Origin: a bacterium
Lineage (GTDB): Bacteria > UBA8248
Reading direction: 5' to 3'
Length of the DNA stretch: 64,000 nt
Assembly: GCA_965213625.1 (NCBI GenBank)
Contig: CBDBZU010000004.1
Location: 3,104,001 to 3,168,000, forward strand
The notes below the pieces were generated by a model that ran no database searches, was not told where the DNA came from, and saw only the letters and a program-made list of their open reading frames with translations. Position 1 is the stretch's first letter, and each line of letters opens with the position of its first letter. The position numbers were made by a program, and so were the translations under genes. Below, piece by piece: positions 54,461 to 63,856 of this stretch.

Positions 54461-56674
54461 ATGAGCCAAATTAGACTGCGAATCTCGGTTATAGCTCTTC
54501 TAGCGGTTGTAGCTGCCGCCTCCTTCGGTTGTGGCGGAGGATCCGGCTCCGGCTCGGCGGCCAGCGGCGGTTTCATCCCTGCCGTGATACCGGGCAACGA
54601 CTAGCCGACCAGAAGTGGAGGTAGTGACGCCATCCTTGGCACTCCGCCATCGAATGGAGACGGTGGAAACGGAGCCGTCGGTTCGACGCAGAATCCACAA
54701 TCCGCGCAGCAACTGGTTCAAAACGGCAATCAGGGAGAAGACGGGGAAGAGAAACCCGGCAACTCCACAAACTCGACGACCGGCACTGAAAGCGAAAACA
54801 TCGTCATTGACGCTCCACCATCGAATGAAGGCGGGGGAAACGGAGCCGGCAGCCCAACACAGAATTCTAATACCGCACGACAAGGTCTAGGGGAATTTCA
54901 ACTACCTCCGGGGCATGGCATCGAGCCAGGCCTGATTGAAGTGCAGGGGGGTGTATCAGAAGAATTCGGCAATATTATAATCTCGTGCCCTTACACCGAC
55001 GGCTTCTCGAGTTGCTTCATCAATGTCGGGGTGAACGGCGTGGCGACCTACTCTGAAAACGGAACCGCCCCCAACTACAGGCATAGTCCACGCTATGAAT
55101 ACCTGGACATCCCTTTGCCCAGAGCCGTCGACTGGCAACAAGCGCCTGTAATAGACCATGGAGACATAATGCACGTTGGGGCCAATGTCGCGCCTCAAGA
55201 CGGCGTGTTGACCGAAGGAATCGCCCGCAACGGAGTAAGTGTTTCATACGGACAGGTCCGGGACGGCCTCGGGGCGGACAGACTCCTCGAATTTATGAAA
55301 CAGCATATTAGTATTGAAGAAAAGCTCGCCTATTCCGGCGTGAACAACGGCTCGGGTCTCGAAACCTTTCCCGAGCCCCCAACCATCCGTCTCGCTGAGG
55401 GAACCAGCGAGTTATATACAAAGTTTGCGGCGCACGCCGTTCAGTTGATCAACAGCGCCTTACCCATTGATAAGCGCATCACGCTAAGCATGGAGACTCT
55501 GCCGGCAGATGCGTCGAACGATGACATCCCAGAGGGGCAGATTCTTCTCAATTTCTCTAAACTCGCCAATCACACACAGTTGGGTGGTGCTTCAACTATT
55601 ACCAACACAGAATTTAATACCGAAACACAGCGTGATGAAGTCCAACAGACGAGCAAAGCCAGAACCACAATAAACGATGATTTATTTCGATTTGCCTTTG
55701 TGTTTAACCCAACGTCGGATAAGGAAGAACTGGCCGAACGTTGGGAGGGCAAATTATTGGATAGCCGGGTGTCGAATACGGACATGATCATCAAATGGTT
55801 CAACGATGGCATTTTGCTTTCAGTTATTGTTCACGAACTGATGCATACACTCGGATTTTATCATATCGACGACGTGCGATTTTCCGATTCAATTTTACAT
55901 CCGGAAGCAGAATCAAATAATGGCCAAGTACAAGTATATTCACCATACCTGGATGGGGCGGTAATCATGTTGTTCGTTTTCCCAAATGATACGGAGGAAT
56001 CAGGCCAATCCGGATATCTCCCAGCACAACGAAACGAAGGCTACATCATCACACCCAGAGCTAGATCCGTACACGGGCACGTCCTGTATCCCATCGACAG
56101 AGAGGCCCTGCTGGCGGCCTACAACAGACTCGCTCCAGGCACTCAGCCGGAAGAACTGACGGCGGAAAACTTAGGGTCTTGGAGCGACACGTCATTACAT
56201 CTGCGCGGGGATGTGGATGTTCGGGGCGGAGGGGCCTCATTCGGCGTCGCATTGAGAAACGGCTTCGCGCAGCCATGGGCCGCGGGTCCCTCACCGTGGA
56301 CGGACCTCCGGGACAACCGCTTTGTGTCGGGAAGCGCAACCTGGAACGGCGCTCTCCTGGGGGTCGATTTTTCATCGGAAACGATCTCTGGCGACGCTTC
56401 GCTCTCCGTCAATCTGACAAGTCTCACCGGGCGACTCGACTTCACAGGCTTGGAGAAATGGGGAGTGAACGAAGCGCCTGGAGCAGCCGGCAGCGGGACG
56501 ACGTGGGTCGATGGTGATCTGGGATACACGGTCCAGGTTCGCGGCAACACCTTCATCCAGACCGGCGGAGACGACGGCTATGTAACCGGCGCGTTTTTCG
56601 GCCCCGTCCACGAGGCCATGGGCGGCGTGCTCGAACGCGCAGACCTCTCGGCGGGCTTCGGCGGTAAGCGGTAA
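54461..56674 (+). pseudogene. Surface lipoprotein with metzincin motif and TbpB-like C-terminal barrel, interrupted by one in-frame TAG (54602-54604)
   Basis: Lipobox SFGC at codons 21-24; frame open from 54605 into ORF 54941-56674; HELMHTLGFYH; C-terminal GAFFGP.HE.MGGV...GFGGKR. Confidence 0.75.
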
Positions 56675-58079: not shown

Positions 58080-58547
58080 TTAGATGCTCACCTGGAAATT
58101 CGGCAGGCGGACACCACCTCCCGCATCGGCAGACGCCGCGCTCAATTCCTCGAGCGTGGTCTCGCGCAGCGTCTTGTCTATGGCGTCTTCCAGTTTTTTC
58201 CACAAGGCGCGGCTCCAGCACACCGGAATGTTCGGGCACGGCGACGAGGGCGGCTCCTCACCGCAATCGACGGGCTGAATCGTCTCTCCTACCGCGCACA
58301 AAACATCGCGCATGTTGATCCCGGAGGGCGGCAGCGCCAGGATGTAGCCGCCTCCCGGTCCCCTCGTGCTGCTCACCAGAGAGGCCCTGCGCATCTTCAC
58401 GAACAATTGTTCGAGATAATGCTGGCTGATGCCGAGCTTGCCGGCTATCTGGGGCAAAGGAACGGGATGCGTCTGCGAATGCCTGGCCAGCTCAATCATG
58501 GCGAGCACGGCGTATCGTCCCTTGGTCGATATCTTCATCGGCGGCAT
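58080..58547 (-). CDS. Rrf2 family regulator, IscR-like
   Basis: MKISTKGRYAV.AM, YLEQLF, S.RGPGGGY, three C-terminal Cys; start may be 58538. Confidence 0.92.
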   Translation of the reverse strand: MPPMKISTKGRYAVLAMIELARHSQTHPVPLPQIAGKLGISQHYLEQLFVKMRRASLVSSTRGPGGGYILALPPSGINMRDVLCAVGETIQPVDCGEEPPSSPCPNIPVCWSRALWKKLEDAIDKTLRETTLEELSAASADAGGGVRLPNFQVSI

Positions 58548-58569: not shown

Positions 58570-59385
58570 TCATGGCTGAACGAGCGCTCCGCGCTTCATG
58601 GGGAATTTCGCTTGCCCGCGCTCGGCGAGCGCGCAGACGGGACAATCCGGGTCCTGGGCCACATCCACGCTCCCGACGGCGTTTTTCCACAAATCAGCCG
58701 TCATCAGCCTGTTCGACCAGGCGGGATCGAGCCCCACCAGAACACGCAGCGCGTCTGCGGCCTGCGCCATGCCCACGAAACCGGCCACCGCGCCGAAAAC
58801 GCCCGCATCCCCGCAGTCGAGGCCGCGCGCGTTTGCGCCCTCCTCGCCTACCAGACACCTCAGACACGCGCTCTCACCCGGCAGAATCGTCATCATTTGG
58901 CCGAAAAAGCGCAAGACGCCCCCCATCACCCACGGCCTGCCCGCTTCGGCGCAGGCTTCGTTCAGCGCGAGTTTTGTGGCCAGATTGTCGCTGCCATCGA
59001 CGATGACGTCATAAGGCGCGATGATTCTGGCGACGTTCCCGCTCGTGAGTTTCTGAGGAATCTTGTCCACAGCCACCTCGGCGGAAAGCCTGAATATGGA
59101 ATCAGCGCCTGAGTCCACTTTCAGGCGGCCGATGTCTTCGGTGCGGTGGAGAATCTGGCGCGCGAGGTTGTCGAGCGTCACGGCGTCGTGATCCGCAAGC
59201 CCGATGCGGCCCACGCCCGCCACGGCCAGGGCCAGCGCCGCAGGGCAGCCCAGGCCGCCGACGCCCACGATTAGCGCGGATGAGGCCGCCAGGGCGTTAT
59301 TCCAACTCACGCGTGCCGTGGATGTGCTTGCGGACGCTGGCGGCGCTTTATCGGGCAACCCCTTGCGAGGAAAATGAAGACTCAT
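58570..59385 (-). CDS. ThiF/MoeB E1-like adenylyltransferase lacking the N-terminal RYSR segment
   Basis: GVGGLG, D.D.V...NL.RQ, KV, DGSDN, CLRC, LDCGDAGV, CPVC. Confidence 0.9.
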   Translation of the reverse strand: MSLHFPRKGLPDKAPPASASTSTARVSWNNALAASSALIVGVGGLGCPAALALAVAGVGRIGLADHDAVTLDNLARQILHRTEDIGRLKVDSGADSIFRLSAEVAVDKIPQKLTSGNVARIIAPYDVIVDGSDNLATKLALNEACAEAGRPWVMGGVLRFFGQMMTILPGESACLRCLVGEEGANARGLDCGDAGVFGAVAGFVGMAQAADALRVLVGLDPAWSNRLMTADLWKNAVGSVDVAQDPDCPVCALAERGQAKFPMKRGALVQP

Positions 59386-59876
59386 GCGCCCGCCTCCTCG
59401 AAAATTTCCAGCTCGTTCTCGATAAAGGTCTTTTGCTCCGCATCCCAGTAATACACCTTCTGGCCAAGTACGGCGCCTTCGCGCACGCTCATGACAACGT
59501 GCTCGGCATCCGGGAACGCCGGAATATCCCCGAAAGGAACCGCCGCATCCACGTCTTCCTGCGAAAAATAGGCATCCTCGTCCGGGTGGCTGTGGAATAT
59601 GCCGCGAACCACCTCGCCCGCCTTCTCCGCTTCTCTCACGATGCGCTCGAACTCGAAGGGATCGATCAGAAAGGCGCGCCGCGCCGTCCGTGGATATATT
59701 TCCGGGTCCTTCTCGTGCATCTCGTTCTGCACGTTCTTACAAGGCTGGAGTGCGAGCGTTTCAACTTTGCCCTCCAGCCCAGGCGGGGGACCGATTATCA
59801 ACCCGCAGCACTCATCGGGATACGCCTCTCGCGCGTGATGGTGCATCGCCTCCACCTGTTCAAGTGTCAGACGCAA
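59382..59876 (-). CDS. JAB/Mov34 (M67) metalloprotease, Mec-like
   Basis: YPDECCG and FHSHPDEDAYFSQED (HxHx7Sx2D JAMM motif). Confidence 0.92.
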   Translation of the reverse strand: MRLTLEQVEAMHHHAREAYPDECCGLIIGPPPGLEGKVETLALQPCKNVQNEMHEKDPEIYPRTARRAFLIDPFEFERIVREAEKAGEVVRGIFHSHPDEDAYFSQEDVDAAVPFGDIPAFPDAEHVVMSVREGAVLGQKVYYWDAEQKTFIENELEIFEEAGA

Positions 59877-59887
59877 AACAAGCCTCC

Positions 59888-60826
59888 CTAGCGCGCTTCG
59901 CTCAAGTACCTGTCCCCCCCGTCGGGGAGCAGGGTGACGATAACGCCCTTCCCTATCTGCTTCGCCACCTCGCGCACGCCCACGAGCGCGGCTCCCGCCG
60001 AGTGGCCGATGAAGAGGCCCTCTTCTTTCGCGATGCGTTCGGCGAGATCGTAGCTTTCCTCGGTGCTCGCCAGAATCAGGTTGTCGTGCACGCTTTCATC
60101 GTAAATCTCCGGGCGTATGGCCGTGGGGATGTGCTTCATGCCCTCCAAACCATGAAATGATTCCGAGGGCATAACCGCATACACCACGACATCCTGCTTC
60201 CTTGCCTTCAAGCCGCGCCCCGTGCCCACCAGGGTGCCCGTGGTGCCGAGACCCGCAACGAAGTGCGCCACCCGCCCGTCGGTCTGCTCCAGAATCTCGA
60301 CCGCCGTTGTCTCCACGTGTGCGAGCGGATTGGCGGGGTTGTCGTACTGGCAGGGTAAAAAGTATTTTTCCGGCTCCTCGCGGTACATCTTCGCCGCGAG
60401 GCGCTGCGCGCCGTCCGAACCCTCCAGGGGATCAGAGAGAACGATGTCGGCCCCGTAGCCCTTGAGCGTCGCCTTGCGCTCGTCGCTCGCGTTCGCAGGC
60501 AAGACGAGGCGGATGGGAATCCCGAGTGCGGCGCCTATCATGGCGTACGCGATGCCGGTGTTCCCGCTCGTGGAATCCAGGAGAATCTTGCCGGGGCGCA
60601 ACTGGCCCGTTTCCAGGCCGTCTTTCACCATGAAGAGCGCCGGCCTGTCCTTCACCGAGCCGCCCGGATTGAACCACTCCGCCTTGGCGTAGACCTCAAC
60701 GTCCGGGAATTCGATCTCGAACAACTTGATCTTGAGCAACGGGGTGTTGCCGATACACTTGATTATCGGGGAATCCTCCAGGTTTCTGAACGCGCTCGCG
60801 GGATTCTCCACCGTCGATTCGACCAT
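59888..60826 (-). CDS. cysM: Cysteine synthase, CysM-like
   Basis: NPGGSVKDRPA, STSGNTG, QYDNPAN, GLGTTGT; adjacent to sulfur carrier and JAB genes. Confidence 0.82.
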   Translation of the reverse strand: MVESTVENPASAFRNLEDSPIIKCIGNTPLLKIKLFEIEFPDVEVYAKAEWFNPGGSVKDRPALFMVKDGLETGQLRPGKILLDSTSGNTGIAYAMIGAALGIPIRLVLPANASDERKATLKGYGADIVLSDPLEGSDGAQRLAAKMYREEPEKYFLPCQYDNPANPLAHVETTAVEILEQTDGRVAHFVAGLGTTGTLVGTGRGLKARKQDVVVYAVMPSESFHGLEGMKHIPTAIRPEIYDESVHDNLILASTEESYDLAERIAKEEGLFIGHSAGAALVGVREVAKQIGKGVIVTLLPDGGDRYLSEAR

Positions 60827-60859
60827 TGATATGGCCCTCGCACTTTGCTCCTGAAACTC

Positions 60860-61507
60860 TCAGGAAAGGTTCGCACGCGCCTCCATTAGGCCATGCGAAA
60901 AATCGAATCGGGCCTGCACAGTCGACCCCACTGTATCCGTCTCATCCACCAGATGCCTTAAAGTTCTGGCGGCCAGCCATGCGCCCAAAGCGCCCTGGGC
61001 CGCCGTTGAGGCTGACCCTACTTGAGGCGCCATGTTCGGCTTCTCGAAAACGCCGGGGCCTTCTGAAAACTCGCCCGCCTCACCACGGCTCATGCCTCGT
61101 ATATCGAATTTTCCCATTAACTTGACCGTCTCGATATTTCCGGCGGATTCATCGCCCAGCCGGATGAGGACATCGAAATCCTTTCCCGCCACTTCACCCG
61201 GATGAATCGGAACCAGCCTCGAATCGGGATTTAGCCTCTTGAGGCCATTGCCCAGGCTGCCGCCATAGAAGGCGCAAAGCGGCGATTCCCGCTTGAGCCC
61301 ATCGCCTCCATCGAGCGCACACCAGCCGATGCGTCCCACGCCCGCAGCGGCCAGATAGGCCAGGGCCATGAGCGCCGCGCTTTCCTCATCCTCAGAAAAG
61401 ACAATGAGGACGGACGAGGCGAGCAAGCGCTCCTGGCCGACCCCTCCCACGCCGGGGAGTAGTACGTGGCGGCTGTAGCGCTGAATCTGCTCTTCGCTCA
61501 GACCCAA
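60860..61507 (-). CDS. Catalytically degenerate ThiF/MoeB-like protein retaining RYSR
   Basis: LSEEQIQRYSRHVLLP.VG..GQERL, LAAAGVGRI, LKRLNPD; no GxGGxG, NLxRQ or CxxC motifs. Confidence 0.8.
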   Translation of the reverse strand: MGLSEEQIQRYSRHVLLPGVGGVGQERLLASSVLIVFSEDEESAALMALAYLAAAGVGRIGWCALDGGDGLKRESPLCAFYGGSLGNGLKRLNPDSRLVPIHPGEVAGKDFDVLIRLGDESAGNIETVKLMGKFDIRGMSRGEAGEFSEGPGVFEKPNMAPQVGSASTAAQGALGAWLAARTLRHLVDETDTVGSTVQARFDFSHGLMEARANLS

Positions 61508-61540
61508 GGGACAACTCTCCTCTCGGGAGTTTTCGGACGA

Positions 61541-61819
61541 TTAGAGGCCGCCCGCAATGGCCGGCACGATGGAGACCTCATCCCCATCGCTCACCGCCGT
61601 CCCCTCGCCCTGCAGGAAGCGGATGTCCTCCTGGTTCACATAAATGTTCACGAAGCGGCGCAGCTTGCCCTCCTCGTCATAGAGGCGCTGGCCGATGCCC
61701 GCGAACTGGTTGTCGAGATTTGCGAGCACTTCCTTCACGTCCGCGCCCGCGATATCCACGGCGTCCTGCTGCTGGGTGAACTCCTGTAAAGGTGTCGGAA
61801 TACGAACCGTTACCGCCAT
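61541..61819 (-). CDS. Ubiquitin-like sulfur carrier (CysO/MoaD family)
   Basis: VRIPTPL, LRRFVNIYVN.EDIRFL.G, DGDEVSIVPAIAGG-L. Confidence 0.93.
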   Translation of the reverse strand: MAVTVRIPTPLQEFTQQQDAVDIAGADVKEVLANLDNQFAGIGQRLYDEEGKLRRFVNIYVNQEDIRFLQGEGTAVSDGDEVSIVPAIAGGL

Positions 61820-61872: not shown

Positions 61873-62832
61873 CTAACGAAAATGCTGCTCCAGACTATAA
61901 TATCTCTCCCAGCCGTCGGGTATGACGACCACCACGTTTTCCTCGGGACTCATCCGCCGCGCCACCTCCAAAGCGGCGCTAACCGCCGCGCCCGCCGAAA
62001 TACCTGCGGCCATGCCCTCCTCGCGGCTTAAGGCCTTGCTCATGTCGTATGCGTCCGAATCGCTCACCGGCATCACCTCATCAATGATCTCCCGGTTGAG
62101 AACGGCGGGAATAAAGCCCGCGCCGATACCCTGAATCTGGTGCGGGCCGGGTTCTCCGCCCGAAAGAACAGGGGACGCGGCGGGCTCCACTCCCACGACG
62201 AGCGTTTCGGACCGCCTCTCCTTCAGGACCTCGCCGACTCCCGTAATGGTGCCACCCGTCCCCACGCCCGCCACGAAGGCATCCACCGCCTCCGCGCCCA
62301 TATCGCGCAGAATCTCGCGCGCCGTGGTTCTACGGTGGATTTCCGGGTTGGCCGGGTTGTTGAACTGCTGGGGCATGAAGTAGTCCGGGTTCTCATCCAA
62401 AATGGCTTCCGCCATCACGAGGGAGCCGTACATGCCACCCTCGCTCGAGCTGAATACCACCTCGGCCCCGTAGCCCGTGAGCAGGGATTTGCGCTCGTGG
62501 CTCATGCTCTTGCTGAGCACGATAATCGTCCTGTAGCCGCGAATGGCGCCGATGAGCGCCAGGCCTATCCCTGTGTTTCCGCTCGTGGGTTCGATGATCG
62601 TTCCACCGGGCCTCAAGAGACCGCGCCGTTCGCCGTCGAGCACCATGCTGAGCGCGATGCGATCCTTCACGCTTCCGCCGGGGTTGTACTGTTCGAGCTT
62701 TGCGAAGACGCGCGCGCCGGACGCATCCGGCAGGCGCTGCAGTTGGACGAGGCTCGTGCTTCCGATGCGATCGATGAGCGAGGGAAGCGCCCTTAGAATC
62801 TGGGGCGGACGGCCCCGGGTGCCCAATGCCAT
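61873..62832 (-). CDS. cysK: Cysteine synthase A
   Basis: NPGGSVKDRIA, EPTSGNTGIG, QQFNNPANP..H, GVGTGGT, HQIQGIGAGFIP, ERY.S. Confidence 0.93.
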   Translation of the reverse strand: MALGTRGRPPQILRALPSLIDRIGSTSLVQLQRLPDASGARVFAKLEQYNPGGSVKDRIALSMVLDGERRGLLRPGGTIIEPTSGNTGIGLALIGAIRGYRTIIVLSKSMSHERKSLLTGYGAEVVFSSSEGGMYGSLVMAEAILDENPDYFMPQQFNNPANPEIHRRTTAREILRDMGAEAVDAFVAGVGTGGTITGVGEVLKERRSETLVVGVEPAASPVLSGGEPGPHQIQGIGAGFIPAVLNREIIDEVMPVSDSDAYDMSKALSREEGMAAGISAGAAVSAALEVARRMSPEENVVVVIPDGWERYYSLEQHFR

Positions 62833-62908: not shown

Positions 62909-63034
62909 TCCCAATTAAAGAGTTTTTCCGTTTTTTCTTCCCTTCAACATATTCCCGCATACTCCCAATTTATACTCGGTGTGCTACATTTCCATGTCGC
63001 ATCGCCTTATGATGTGACTCGAAAGGAGAGAGAC

Positions 63035-63856
63035 ATGGCGACATCCGCGGGCGTTCCTCCCATCGCCCTCACCATAGCGGGCTCGGATTCTGGCGGCGGC
63101 GCCGGAATTCAAGCCGACCTCAAGACTTTCAGCGCATTCGGCGTCTATGGCGCCTCGGTCATCACCGCGCTGACGGCGCAAAATACGGTGGGTGTACAGG
63201 GGGTGCACGGTGCGCCGCCTGATTTCATCGCGGCGCAATTCGACTCGGTGTGTTCGGACTTGGACGTAGCTAGCGCAAAAATCGGCATGCTCGCCACTGT
63301 CGACGTCATCGAGGTCGTGGCCGAAAAGCTCAAAGAACACGCGCTCGCGCGTGTCGTGCTCGATCCGGTAATGGTCGCCAAAAGCGGCGACCGCCTCCTG
63401 GCGCCCGACGCGAGAGACGCGCTCGTCGAAAATCTCTTTCCGCTGGCAGAGGTCGTCACCCCCAACACCGAAGAAGCGCGCGATATCCTCGAATCCGGAG
63501 AAATAGAAAACCTCGCACAGATGAAAGACGCCGCACGTGCCCTCCACGAGCGTGGGGCGAAATGCGTTCTGCTCAAAGGGGGCCACATCACCGACGGGGC
63601 GGTTGACATTTTTTTCGACGGAGAAAACGAGGTCGCCCTGGAAGGCAGGCGGGTCGACACCCCCCATACCCACGGTACGGGATGTACGCTATCCTCGGCC
63701 ATCGCGGCCGGACTGGCGCTGGGGGAATCGACCATCGAGGCGGTGAGGCGGGCGAAAGGTTTCATTCAGGGCGCCATCGAGAACGCGCTCGCCATCGGTA
63801 ACGGCAGAGGGCCGCTGAACCACATGTACCGCCAATACGAGGAAAAATCGCCGTGA
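63035..63856 (+). CDS. thiD: Hydroxymethylpyrimidine/phosphomethylpyrimidine kinase
   Basis: LTIAGSDSGGGAGIQADLKTF, KIGML, VLDPVMVAKSG, LLKGGH, THGTGCTLSSAIA. Confidence 0.96.
   Translation: MATSAGVPPIALTIAGSDSGGGAGIQADLKTFSAFGVYGASVITALTAQNTVGVQGVHGAPPDFIAAQFDSVCSDLDVASAKIGMLATVDVIEVVAEKLKEHALARVVLDPVMVAKSGDRLLAPDARDALVENLFPLAEVVTPNTEEARDILESGEIENLAQMKDAARALHERGAKCVLLKGGHITDGAVDIFFDGENEVALEGRRVDTPHTHGTGCTLSSAIAAGLALGESTIEAVRRAKGFIQGAIENALAIGNGRGPLNHMYRQYEEKSP

Follow-up and report, generated by a model that had tools for sequence, protein, structure and literature searches.

Two ThiF/MoeB paralogues with complementary losses: a candidate asymmetric E1-like heterodimer in a sulfur-carrier operon of Nitrospinota

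In the heterodimeric E1 enzymes of eukaryotes the N-terminal arginine is donated by the inactive subunit, and in the actinobacterial CysO/CysM/Mec pathway it is the carrier thiocarboxylate that CysM uses. Asymmetric E1 designs are already known from the eukaryotic SAE and NAE enzymes, from bacterial BilD and from yeast Tcd1-Tcd2. SAE1-SAE2 (UBA2) and NAE1 (APPBP1)-UBA3 are described as pseudo-symmetric pairs of an inactive and an active MoeB/ThiF-fold chain with one adenylation site (PMC12355090, PMC11354881); BilD, the E1 of the bacterial Bil antiviral operons, is described as a pseudo-dimer of an inactive and an active adenylation domain (IAD and AAD) (PMC10557695); and in Tcd1-Tcd2, a ThiF-fold dehydratase that forms ct6A in transfer RNA (tRNA), Tcd1, which is proposed to be inactive, is reported to give an Arg59 finger to active Tcd2 and to receive none in return (PMC13139853, NAR 2026). 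For the MoeB/ThiF homodimer, by contrast, the same article describes two sites for adenosine triphosphate (ATP), each completed by the N-terminal arginine of the partner (PMC13139853), and the Bil preprint speaks of the known bacterial E1-like proteins as all homodimers (PMC10557695). Bacterial sulfur-carrier E1-like enzymes are generally treated as symmetric homodimers, and the inactive/active design is viewed as a hallmark of the canonical eukaryotic E1s and BilD. Operons that join a carrier, a cysteine synthase, a JAB peptidase and an E1-like gene appear as types 4c and 4d in Iyer et al. 2006 (PMC1779556). An operon of this composition lies in the 64,000 nucleotides (nt) analyzed here (the window; assembly GCA_965213625.1, contig CBDBZU010000004.1, positions 3,104,001 to 3,168,000), from an organism placed in Nitrospinota by the source names of near-identical proteins ("Nitrospinae bacterium"), and it encodes two separate ThiF/MoeB paralogues: a degenerate one that keeps the N-terminal RYSR segment (Deg), and an active-type one without that segment (dN-ThiF) (Table 1). 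We consider it likely, at a probability of about 0.75, that Deg and dN-ThiF assemble into an asymmetric E1-like heterodimer that has one composite active site and evolved from the symmetric MoeB/ThiF homodimer.

The N-terminus of Deg reads MGLSEEQIQRYSRHVLLPGVGGVGQERLLASSVLIVFSEDEESAAL; the segment MGLSEEQIQRYSRHVLLPGVGGVGQERLL opens the protein, and FSEDEESA comes next, in the position of the glycine loop. Deg has no Pfam match at E≤0.01, and ten MoeB/ThiF-type models of NCBIfam match it over residues 3-67 only, the best with 45.8 bits against a cut-off of 633. Profile-profile alignment to ThiF (hhalign, 99.3% probability over 183 columns) places FSEDEESA on the glycine loop and gives no counterpart in Deg of NLxRQ, the conserved lysine, DxxDN, either CxxC pair or the crossover cysteine; the only cysteines of Deg are C63 and C78. 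A profile of the Deg family matches residues 3-174 of Escherichia coli ThiF and residues 3-112 of MoeB, with Arg13 of Deg, the second arginine of the motif, aligned to Arg11 of ThiF, and a Foldseek search with the AF2 model of Deg puts Uba4, ThiF, MoeB and SAE1 on top, at a probability of 1.00. On these alignments Deg is clearly homologous to ThiF over its entire length despite family scores below the cut-offs. Its source name in Nitrospinota is "hypothetical protein".

The other paralogue has the motifs GVGGLG, NLARQ, DGSDN, CLRC and CPVC together with the cysteine of LDCGDAG. Its residues 30-250 correspond to positions 16-238 of the Pfam ThiF profile, the N-terminus of the profile being left unmatched. 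Of the motif residues, G41, G43, G46, N73, L74, R76, Q77, K89, D133, C174, C177, C248 and C251 are invariant in 44 dN-ThiF sequences, and the crossover cysteine, C191, is conserved in at least 90% of them. Because 271 residues is the longest possible open reading frame (ORF), and because its ATG overlaps the stop codon of the JAMM metallopeptidase gene by 4 nt, an in-frame RYSR segment further upstream is impossible. RYxR is absent from the window protein and from its 67 closest homologues (P0121-P0186, P0193) of the best 120. Many close homologues begin 11-17 residues ahead of the glycine loop, and across the relatives the N-terminus ahead of strand 1 measures about 8 to 40 residues and never contains RYSR, as a tblastn search and an ORF survey of the related loci agree. 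Residues 1-25 of the window protein form an extension rich in proline, alanine and serine (MSLHFPRKGLPDKAPPASASTSTAR) that is found in some species only, others starting about 25 residues later with the JAMM stop codon still overlapped; it is probably a variable, disordered tail. The original prediction, which had been made from the window alone, had assigned Deg the RYSR segment, FSEDEESA in place of the P-loop and the loss of NLxRQ, the CxxC pairs and the crossover cysteine, and had assigned dN-ThiF the catalytic and zinc motifs and no RYSR; the former description is confirmed by the translation and by hhalign, and the latter by the ORF, the Pfam scan and the 67 closest homologues.

The two genes are inherited together. 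Among 42 genomes of the family, the window's own included, both genes are present in 29 and neither in 12; Deg occurs without dN-ThiF in a single genome, whose contig ends right after CysM (G005), and dN-ThiF occurs without Deg in none. Two of the genomes lacking both (G001 and G007, of the same genus and 99-100% complete) have kept the MoeZ-like gene alone. An open, full-length Deg frame is found in 30 of the 42 genomes, at 37-84% identity. All 19 complete loci examined in the genus, and that of a second genus of the family (L044), share the gene order CysK-carrier-Deg-CysM-JAMM-dN-ThiF-Rrf2, CysK stands first in all complete related loci, and the loci interrupted by contig ends are consistent with the same order. 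No full-length Deg was found in nine other genomes of the phylum that were searched. In a genome of another family of the phylum (G025) a RYSR-less ThiF follows CysM-JAMM, and on a second, broken-off contig the carrier is followed by a RYAR-bearing N-terminus. In the outgroup loci L047-L050, CysK and the carrier are followed by one full-length RYSR-bearing ThiF; since this enzyme stands directly after the carrier, Deg occupies the place of the ancestral complete enzyme. Judged from the sequences compared, the complementarity of Deg and dN-ThiF is not a matter of chance, for it is seen again in all relatives carrying the genes and in a second bacterial order.

Purifying selection acts on Deg: the ratio of nonsynonymous to synonymous substitution rates (dN/dS; pairwise Nei-Gojobori estimates over pairs with dS of 0.1-1.5; Table 1) is nowhere near 1. 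Thirty-four columns are invariant in 24 Deg sequences with identity down to 39%. One cluster of them lies in the RYSR segment and just beyond (RYS-H-LLP-VG--GQERLL, with residues 9-29 nearly invariant), another in the YLAAAGVG helix (Y51, L52, A54, G56 and G58), and a third comprises N93, P94 and D95 together with the C-terminal A199, F201, D202 and G206.

When the complex of Deg and dN-ThiF was predicted with both alignments, an ipSAE of 0.94 was obtained in three runs, as compared to 0.00 for the best of three controls; the ipSAE mark is reached by 58 of 80 solved complexes versus 2 of 110 mismatched pairs. The runs share at least 98% of their contacts, and the partner pLDDT is 84 or more. 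On the Deg side the predicted interface takes in the RYSR segment (residues 6, 9-14, 16-18 and 20), and on the dN-ThiF side residue 48, by the glycine loop, and residues 71-72, 74-76 and 78 of the NLARQ region, the best-defined contact pairs being those of dN-ThiF 74-78 and 198-207 with Deg 47-54 and 172-180. A check that is independent of the complex score is the conservation of this interface: the 53 residues of the interface include 18 of the 34 invariant Deg residues (Fisher p 9e-5), and mean conservation of Deg is 0.82 on the interface versus 0.68 off it, or 0.78 versus 0.65 when residues 1-30 are left out. The model suggests that the pair can adopt the layout of an E1-like dimer, with the binding itself predicted.

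The same division of motifs is seen in a second lineage. Outside Nitrospinota, dN-ThiF homologues without RYSR were P0189, P0206, P0239 and P0240, the source of P0206 being Symbiobacterium terraclitae; the relatives of P0206 are mostly ordinary MoeZ-type genes in CysM-JAMM-carrier-E1-Rrf2 operons. At a locus of Symbiobacteriaceae (L122), a RYSR-less ThiF of 251 residues with every motif is followed, with a 4-nt overlap, by a paralogue of 242 residues and then by cysK; the paralogue starts with MSLSESEILRFSRHIILREVGGRGQKRL, has GLGSAGS at the glycine loop and lacks NLxRQ and DxxDN, and in genome G058 this pair makes up the only two ThiF-family matches. An adjacent pair is present in 14 of 19 Symbiobacteriales genomes, the dN-type gene first and the paralogue directly after it. 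RYxR is absent from the dN-type proteins, which have the glycine loop, NLQRQ and two CxxC pairs in 14/14 and DxSDN in 13/14; their paralogues have RYSR, RFSR or RYAR in 14/14 and lack both NLxRQ and DxxDN in 14/14. No carrier, CysM or JAMM gene was detected within 8 kilobases (kb) of the L122 pair, which stands beside cysK only, so the pairing is not tied to the CysO-type operon. In the tree, the Nitrospinota dN forms make up one clade (support 94/98), and the Symbiobacteriales dN forms and P0239 group with RYSR-bearing proteins (95/87), apart from that clade; a single clade of all dN forms is not rejected by the approximately unbiased (AU) test (p 0.055), and the joining of the two Deg groups is a long-branch one, flagged as unreliable. 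Ordinary operons of the type CysM-JAMM-carrier-E1(+rhodanese)-Rrf2 are common in Acidobacteriota, Chloroflexota and others (L053-L132), and about 40 of these 80 loci have E1 open frames of about 480-500 residues with the glycine loop near residue 135-150, which suggests carrier-E1 fusions or over-long ORF calls. A distant genome carries two ThiF-family genes 1.8 kb apart (G309:C45:33292-36603), both of which match the profile from end to end; every motif is present in the ORFs of the retrieved part of this locus (L228), making it a duplicated, non-degenerate pair.

Proteins resembling Deg extend well beyond these two lineages. Searched against 1.84 billion representatives, the Nitrospinota Deg profile matched 6471 proteins at E≤0.001; among the best 150 of these, 82 have at least 195 residues, and 57 of the 82 have RYxR without NLxRQ or DxxDN, most of them with two CxxC pairs. 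A profile built from ten such pseudo-ThiFs brought in 46 more of the same type among its best 120 matches. Among the proteins matched by the two profiles (P0241-P0382, P0386-P0497), the pseudo-ThiFs are a large set of about 200-260 residues each, with a conserved segment, RYSRQIILPEVGGRGQ; source organisms include Nitrospirota and Candidatus Binatia, and members bear the source name "ThiF family adenylyltransferase" or "HesA/MoeB/ThiF family protein", so that names of the adenylyltransferase type appear to be given to proteins which, by their motifs, would be unable to bind ATP in the usual way. Mini forms of 148-154 residues (P0067, P0091 and P0096, on contigs of 154-360 kb) retain the RYSR/RYAR segment, the degenerate loop, the YLAAAGVG helix, LNPD/INPE and a short C-terminal helix, and may be a still more reduced inactive subunit. 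A metagenome scan with the pseudo-ThiF profile A4 gave 80 loci with nearly all ordinary ThiFs that have every motif (NLxRQ in 79 of 84 ThiF-family ORFs, and RYxR in all but three of those); one locus (L165) has an ORF that carries RYSR and lacks NLxRQ and DxxDN, but its contig, of 1.7 kb, shows no neighborhood. Generic ThiF clusters were the only result of an ESM Atlas search, and no degenerate form was found in the 30 best loci when 401 genomes were searched with profile A4 at E≤1e-58, a threshold that also missed the window's own Deg. Taking the two lineages and the pseudo-ThiFs together, we tentatively suggest, at something short of an even chance, that bacteria may have split the symmetric MoeB/ThiF homodimer more than once, and that the pseudo-ThiFs, including the forms of about 150 residues, might be dedicated inactive subunits, each always working with an active partner that has lost its N-terminus. 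They would then be the prokaryotic equivalent of the inactive adenylation domain in eukaryotic E1s, and perhaps a model of how that domain arose.

How such a pair might work is suggested by where the losses fall. The Rossmann motifs missing from Deg and the N-terminus missing from dN-ThiF would all belong to one composite site, and the other is left intact (glycine loop, NLARQ, DGSDN, zinc site and crossover cysteine of dN-ThiF with the RYSR of Deg), which argues for a heterodimer with one site. The carriers of the related loci (L023-L051) all end in AIAGG plus 1-11 variable residues (L, R, LY, VG and others), so that the C-terminus has to be trimmed before activation; the mature Gly-Gly end is presumably exposed by cleavage by the co-encoded JAMM protein, whose HxHx7Sx2D motif is preserved in 23 of 23 related loci. 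A carrier with a C-terminal Gly-Gly, CysM and JAMM, by which the CysO/CysM/Mec/MoeZ pathway is recognized, are all present, with CysM below its equivalog cut-off. We infer a sequence of events in which the JAMM peptidase would trim the residue or residues beyond the Gly-Gly of the carrier, Deg and dN-ThiF would bind one another and adenylate the carrier at their sole site with Arg13 of Deg over the ATP phosphates, the carrier would be converted to its thiocarboxylate with a sulfur donor from outside the operon, and CysM would make cysteine from the thiocarboxylate, the cysteine being released by JAMM.

A number of observations weigh against this heterodimer. The AF2 model of Deg by itself has no more than moderate confidence (pLDDT 68.4, pTM 0.73), and since the homodimers of MoeB, ThiF and Uba4 have already been solved, the score of the complex may be a memory of them. 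The highest dN/dS of the operon is that of Deg. Arg13 is kept in 23 of 24 Deg sequences and is replaced by histidine in a subgroup (P0057, 22 member sequences), and neither a sulfurtransferase nor another sulfur donor is among the operon genes. The arginine fingers of MoeB (Arg14) and ThiF (Arg11) are moreover reported to be non-essential, and E. coli TcdA to be without one (PMC13139853), so that the loss of RYSR is by itself no proof that dN-ThiF is inactive; the R59A mutation of Tcd1 is likewise said to have little effect in that article (PMC13139853). With non-essential fingers in MoeB, ThiF and Tcd1, a heterodimer may serve stability or asymmetry more than the provision of an arginine. One could thus envision dN-ThiF working alone as a finger-less homodimer like TcdA, its own Rossmann site having retained every motif, with Deg in a role outside the E1 reaction, for example as a scaffold or chaperone by which the carrier is passed on to CysM or JAMM. 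However, it would then go unexplained that conservation in Deg, a protein without an ATP site, is highest in the RYSR segment, that the two genes are separated nowhere but at one contig end, and that the pair recurs in Symbiobacteriales without a nearby CysM, JAMM or carrier, and we regard this alternative as unlikely. The original prediction had called the two proteins an obligate pseudo-enzyme/enzyme heterodimer: the pseudo-enzyme/enzyme pair is supported by co-occurrence, selection, the interface, the model and Symbiobacteriales, but "obligate" goes beyond these results, given the reported dispensability of the fingers (PMC13139853). Of the checks it had named, the model of the pair, the co-occurrence and the dN/dS came out in favor: the RYSR segment of Deg and NLARQ of dN-ThiF are both on the predicted interface, dN-ThiF is never without Deg in the 42 family genomes, and a median dN/dS of 0.34 contradicts neutral evolution of the degenerate gene, which is retained in 30 of these genomes.

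Alternatively, Deg might act within a heterodimer as a regulator, titrating dN-ThiF into a state of lower activity or one that is gated, for instance in line with sulfur status. Dead paralogues are described as regulating their active partners in other enzyme families (PMC5201418, PMC3663545), and an Rrf2 regulator is encoded in the same cluster. However, losses confined to one composite site with the other fully kept have the look of a constitutive single-site enzyme, and the tight operon, with gaps of at most 53 nt, points to a fixed stoichiometry rather than to separate control; this we judge to be quite unlikely. That Deg is a decaying duplicate without function, as its lack of a Pfam match, the disappearance of all its catalytic motifs and its dN/dS might lead one to suppose, is hardly credible in view of the full-length frames preserved at 37-84% identity in 30 of the 42 family genomes, of dN/dS values of 0.17-0.49, which never come near 1, and of the 34 invariant residues. 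The asymmetric heterodimer of Deg and dN-ThiF thus accounts best for the losses, the co-inheritance and the conserved interface taken together.

The operon consists of seven ORFs arranged head to tail, with a single overlap, that of 4 nt (Table 1; gene identities are from Pfam and NCBIfam scans of the window proteins). Neither Deg nor dN-ThiF carries a rhodanese domain in the Pfam scan, and no E2-like gene was found among the operon ORFs in the ORF list and the Pfam scan. Another ThiF-family gene of the same genome (C4:2016419-2017129, in a 399-codon open frame) is MoeZ-like by length and by its NCBIfam-type relatives. Divergent from the operon is a ThiD-type phosphomethylpyrimidine kinase gene (62981-63856, plus strand; Phos_pyr_kin E 2.5e-97), and an ORF of 577 residues with a HELMH zinc-protease-like motif lies at 54941-56674 (plus strand), where the G+C content is 0.49-0.52 versus about 0.61 in the operon.

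Table 1. Genes of the operon in the window, in order of transcription, with the median dN/dS among relatives
Gene	Coordinates	Strand	Evidence and remarks	Median dN/dS
CysK-type cysteine synthase, first gene of the operon	61873..62832	-	PALP E 2.2e-75; TIGR01139 cysK 398.3 bits, above the cut-off of 350.95	0.075
ThiS/MoaD/CysO-like sulfur carrier, 92 aa, C-terminal AIAGG+L	61541..61819	-	Pfam ThiS E 2.3e-17	0.07
Deg, degenerate ThiF/MoeB paralogue, 215 aa, TTG start	60860..61507	-	RYSR segment and dimer-interface helices kept; proposed inactive subunit	0.34 (226 pairs, range 0.17-0.49)
CysM-like cysteine synthase	59888..60826	-	PALP E 2.8e-63; TIGR01138 cysM 342.5 bits, below the cut-off of 394.2	0.09
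JAMM/Mec-like metallopeptidase	59382..59876	-	Prok-JAB E 8.1e-20	0.12
dN-ThiF, active-type ThiF/MoeB adenylyltransferase without RYSR, 271 aa	58570..59385	-	Pfam ThiF E 1.4e-61; proposed active subunit	0.23
Rrf2-family regulator (IscR/CymR-like), last gene of the cluster	58080..58547	-	Rrf2 E 2.9e-35; position constant across related loci	0.12

Full-text searches of a literature collection gave no account of a two-gene active/inactive ThiF/MoeB heterodimer in bacteria. The parallel to eukaryotic E1s that the original prediction had drawn holds in so far as an asymmetric design is likely, but the CysO-type operon is not its sole setting, as L122 illustrates, and the precedents of BilD and Tcd1-Tcd2 had gone unnamed. 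In at least two bacterial lineages an intermediate step, duplication followed by complementary loss, would be visible here as two small separate genes, and the lineage of Symbiobacterium includes cultured species. Proteins this small make three questions accessible: what the inactive subunit contributes, whether an arginine in trans is needed, and what advantage one site has over two.

Set against the described systems, the pair has features of each. Like SAE and NAE it would consist of two separate MoeB/ThiF-fold chains, one inactive and one active, as sequence complementarity and the model suggest; unlike them it has no catalytic-cysteine (SCCH/CYS) insertion, FCCH, ubiquitin-fold domain or E2, and dN-ThiF is a bare MoeB-like protein of 271 residues with a ThiF domain only, in a context of sulfur transfer, not conjugation. 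BilD differs in that both domains lie on one polypeptide, which also has a CYS domain, works with an E2 and serves protein conjugation. The operon resembles CysO-CysM-Mec-MoeZ in grouping an E1-like enzyme with a ThiS/MoaD-like carrier, a JAB peptidase and a cysteine synthase; unlike in that system, the E1 has no rhodanese domain and is divided between two paralogues, one active and one dead, CysK is present as a second synthase, and the carrier has extra residues beyond the Gly-Gly. The MoeB and ThiF homodimers (PDB 1jw9/1jwa and 1zud/1zfn) have the same fold and motifs, yet they are symmetric, with two complete sites. Tcd1-Tcd2 is eukaryotic and mitochondrial, acts on tRNA t6A and has extra C-terminal domains, unlike the pair described here, but it is, as that pair would be, a heterodimer built from paralogues of a homodimeric enzyme with the ThiF fold.

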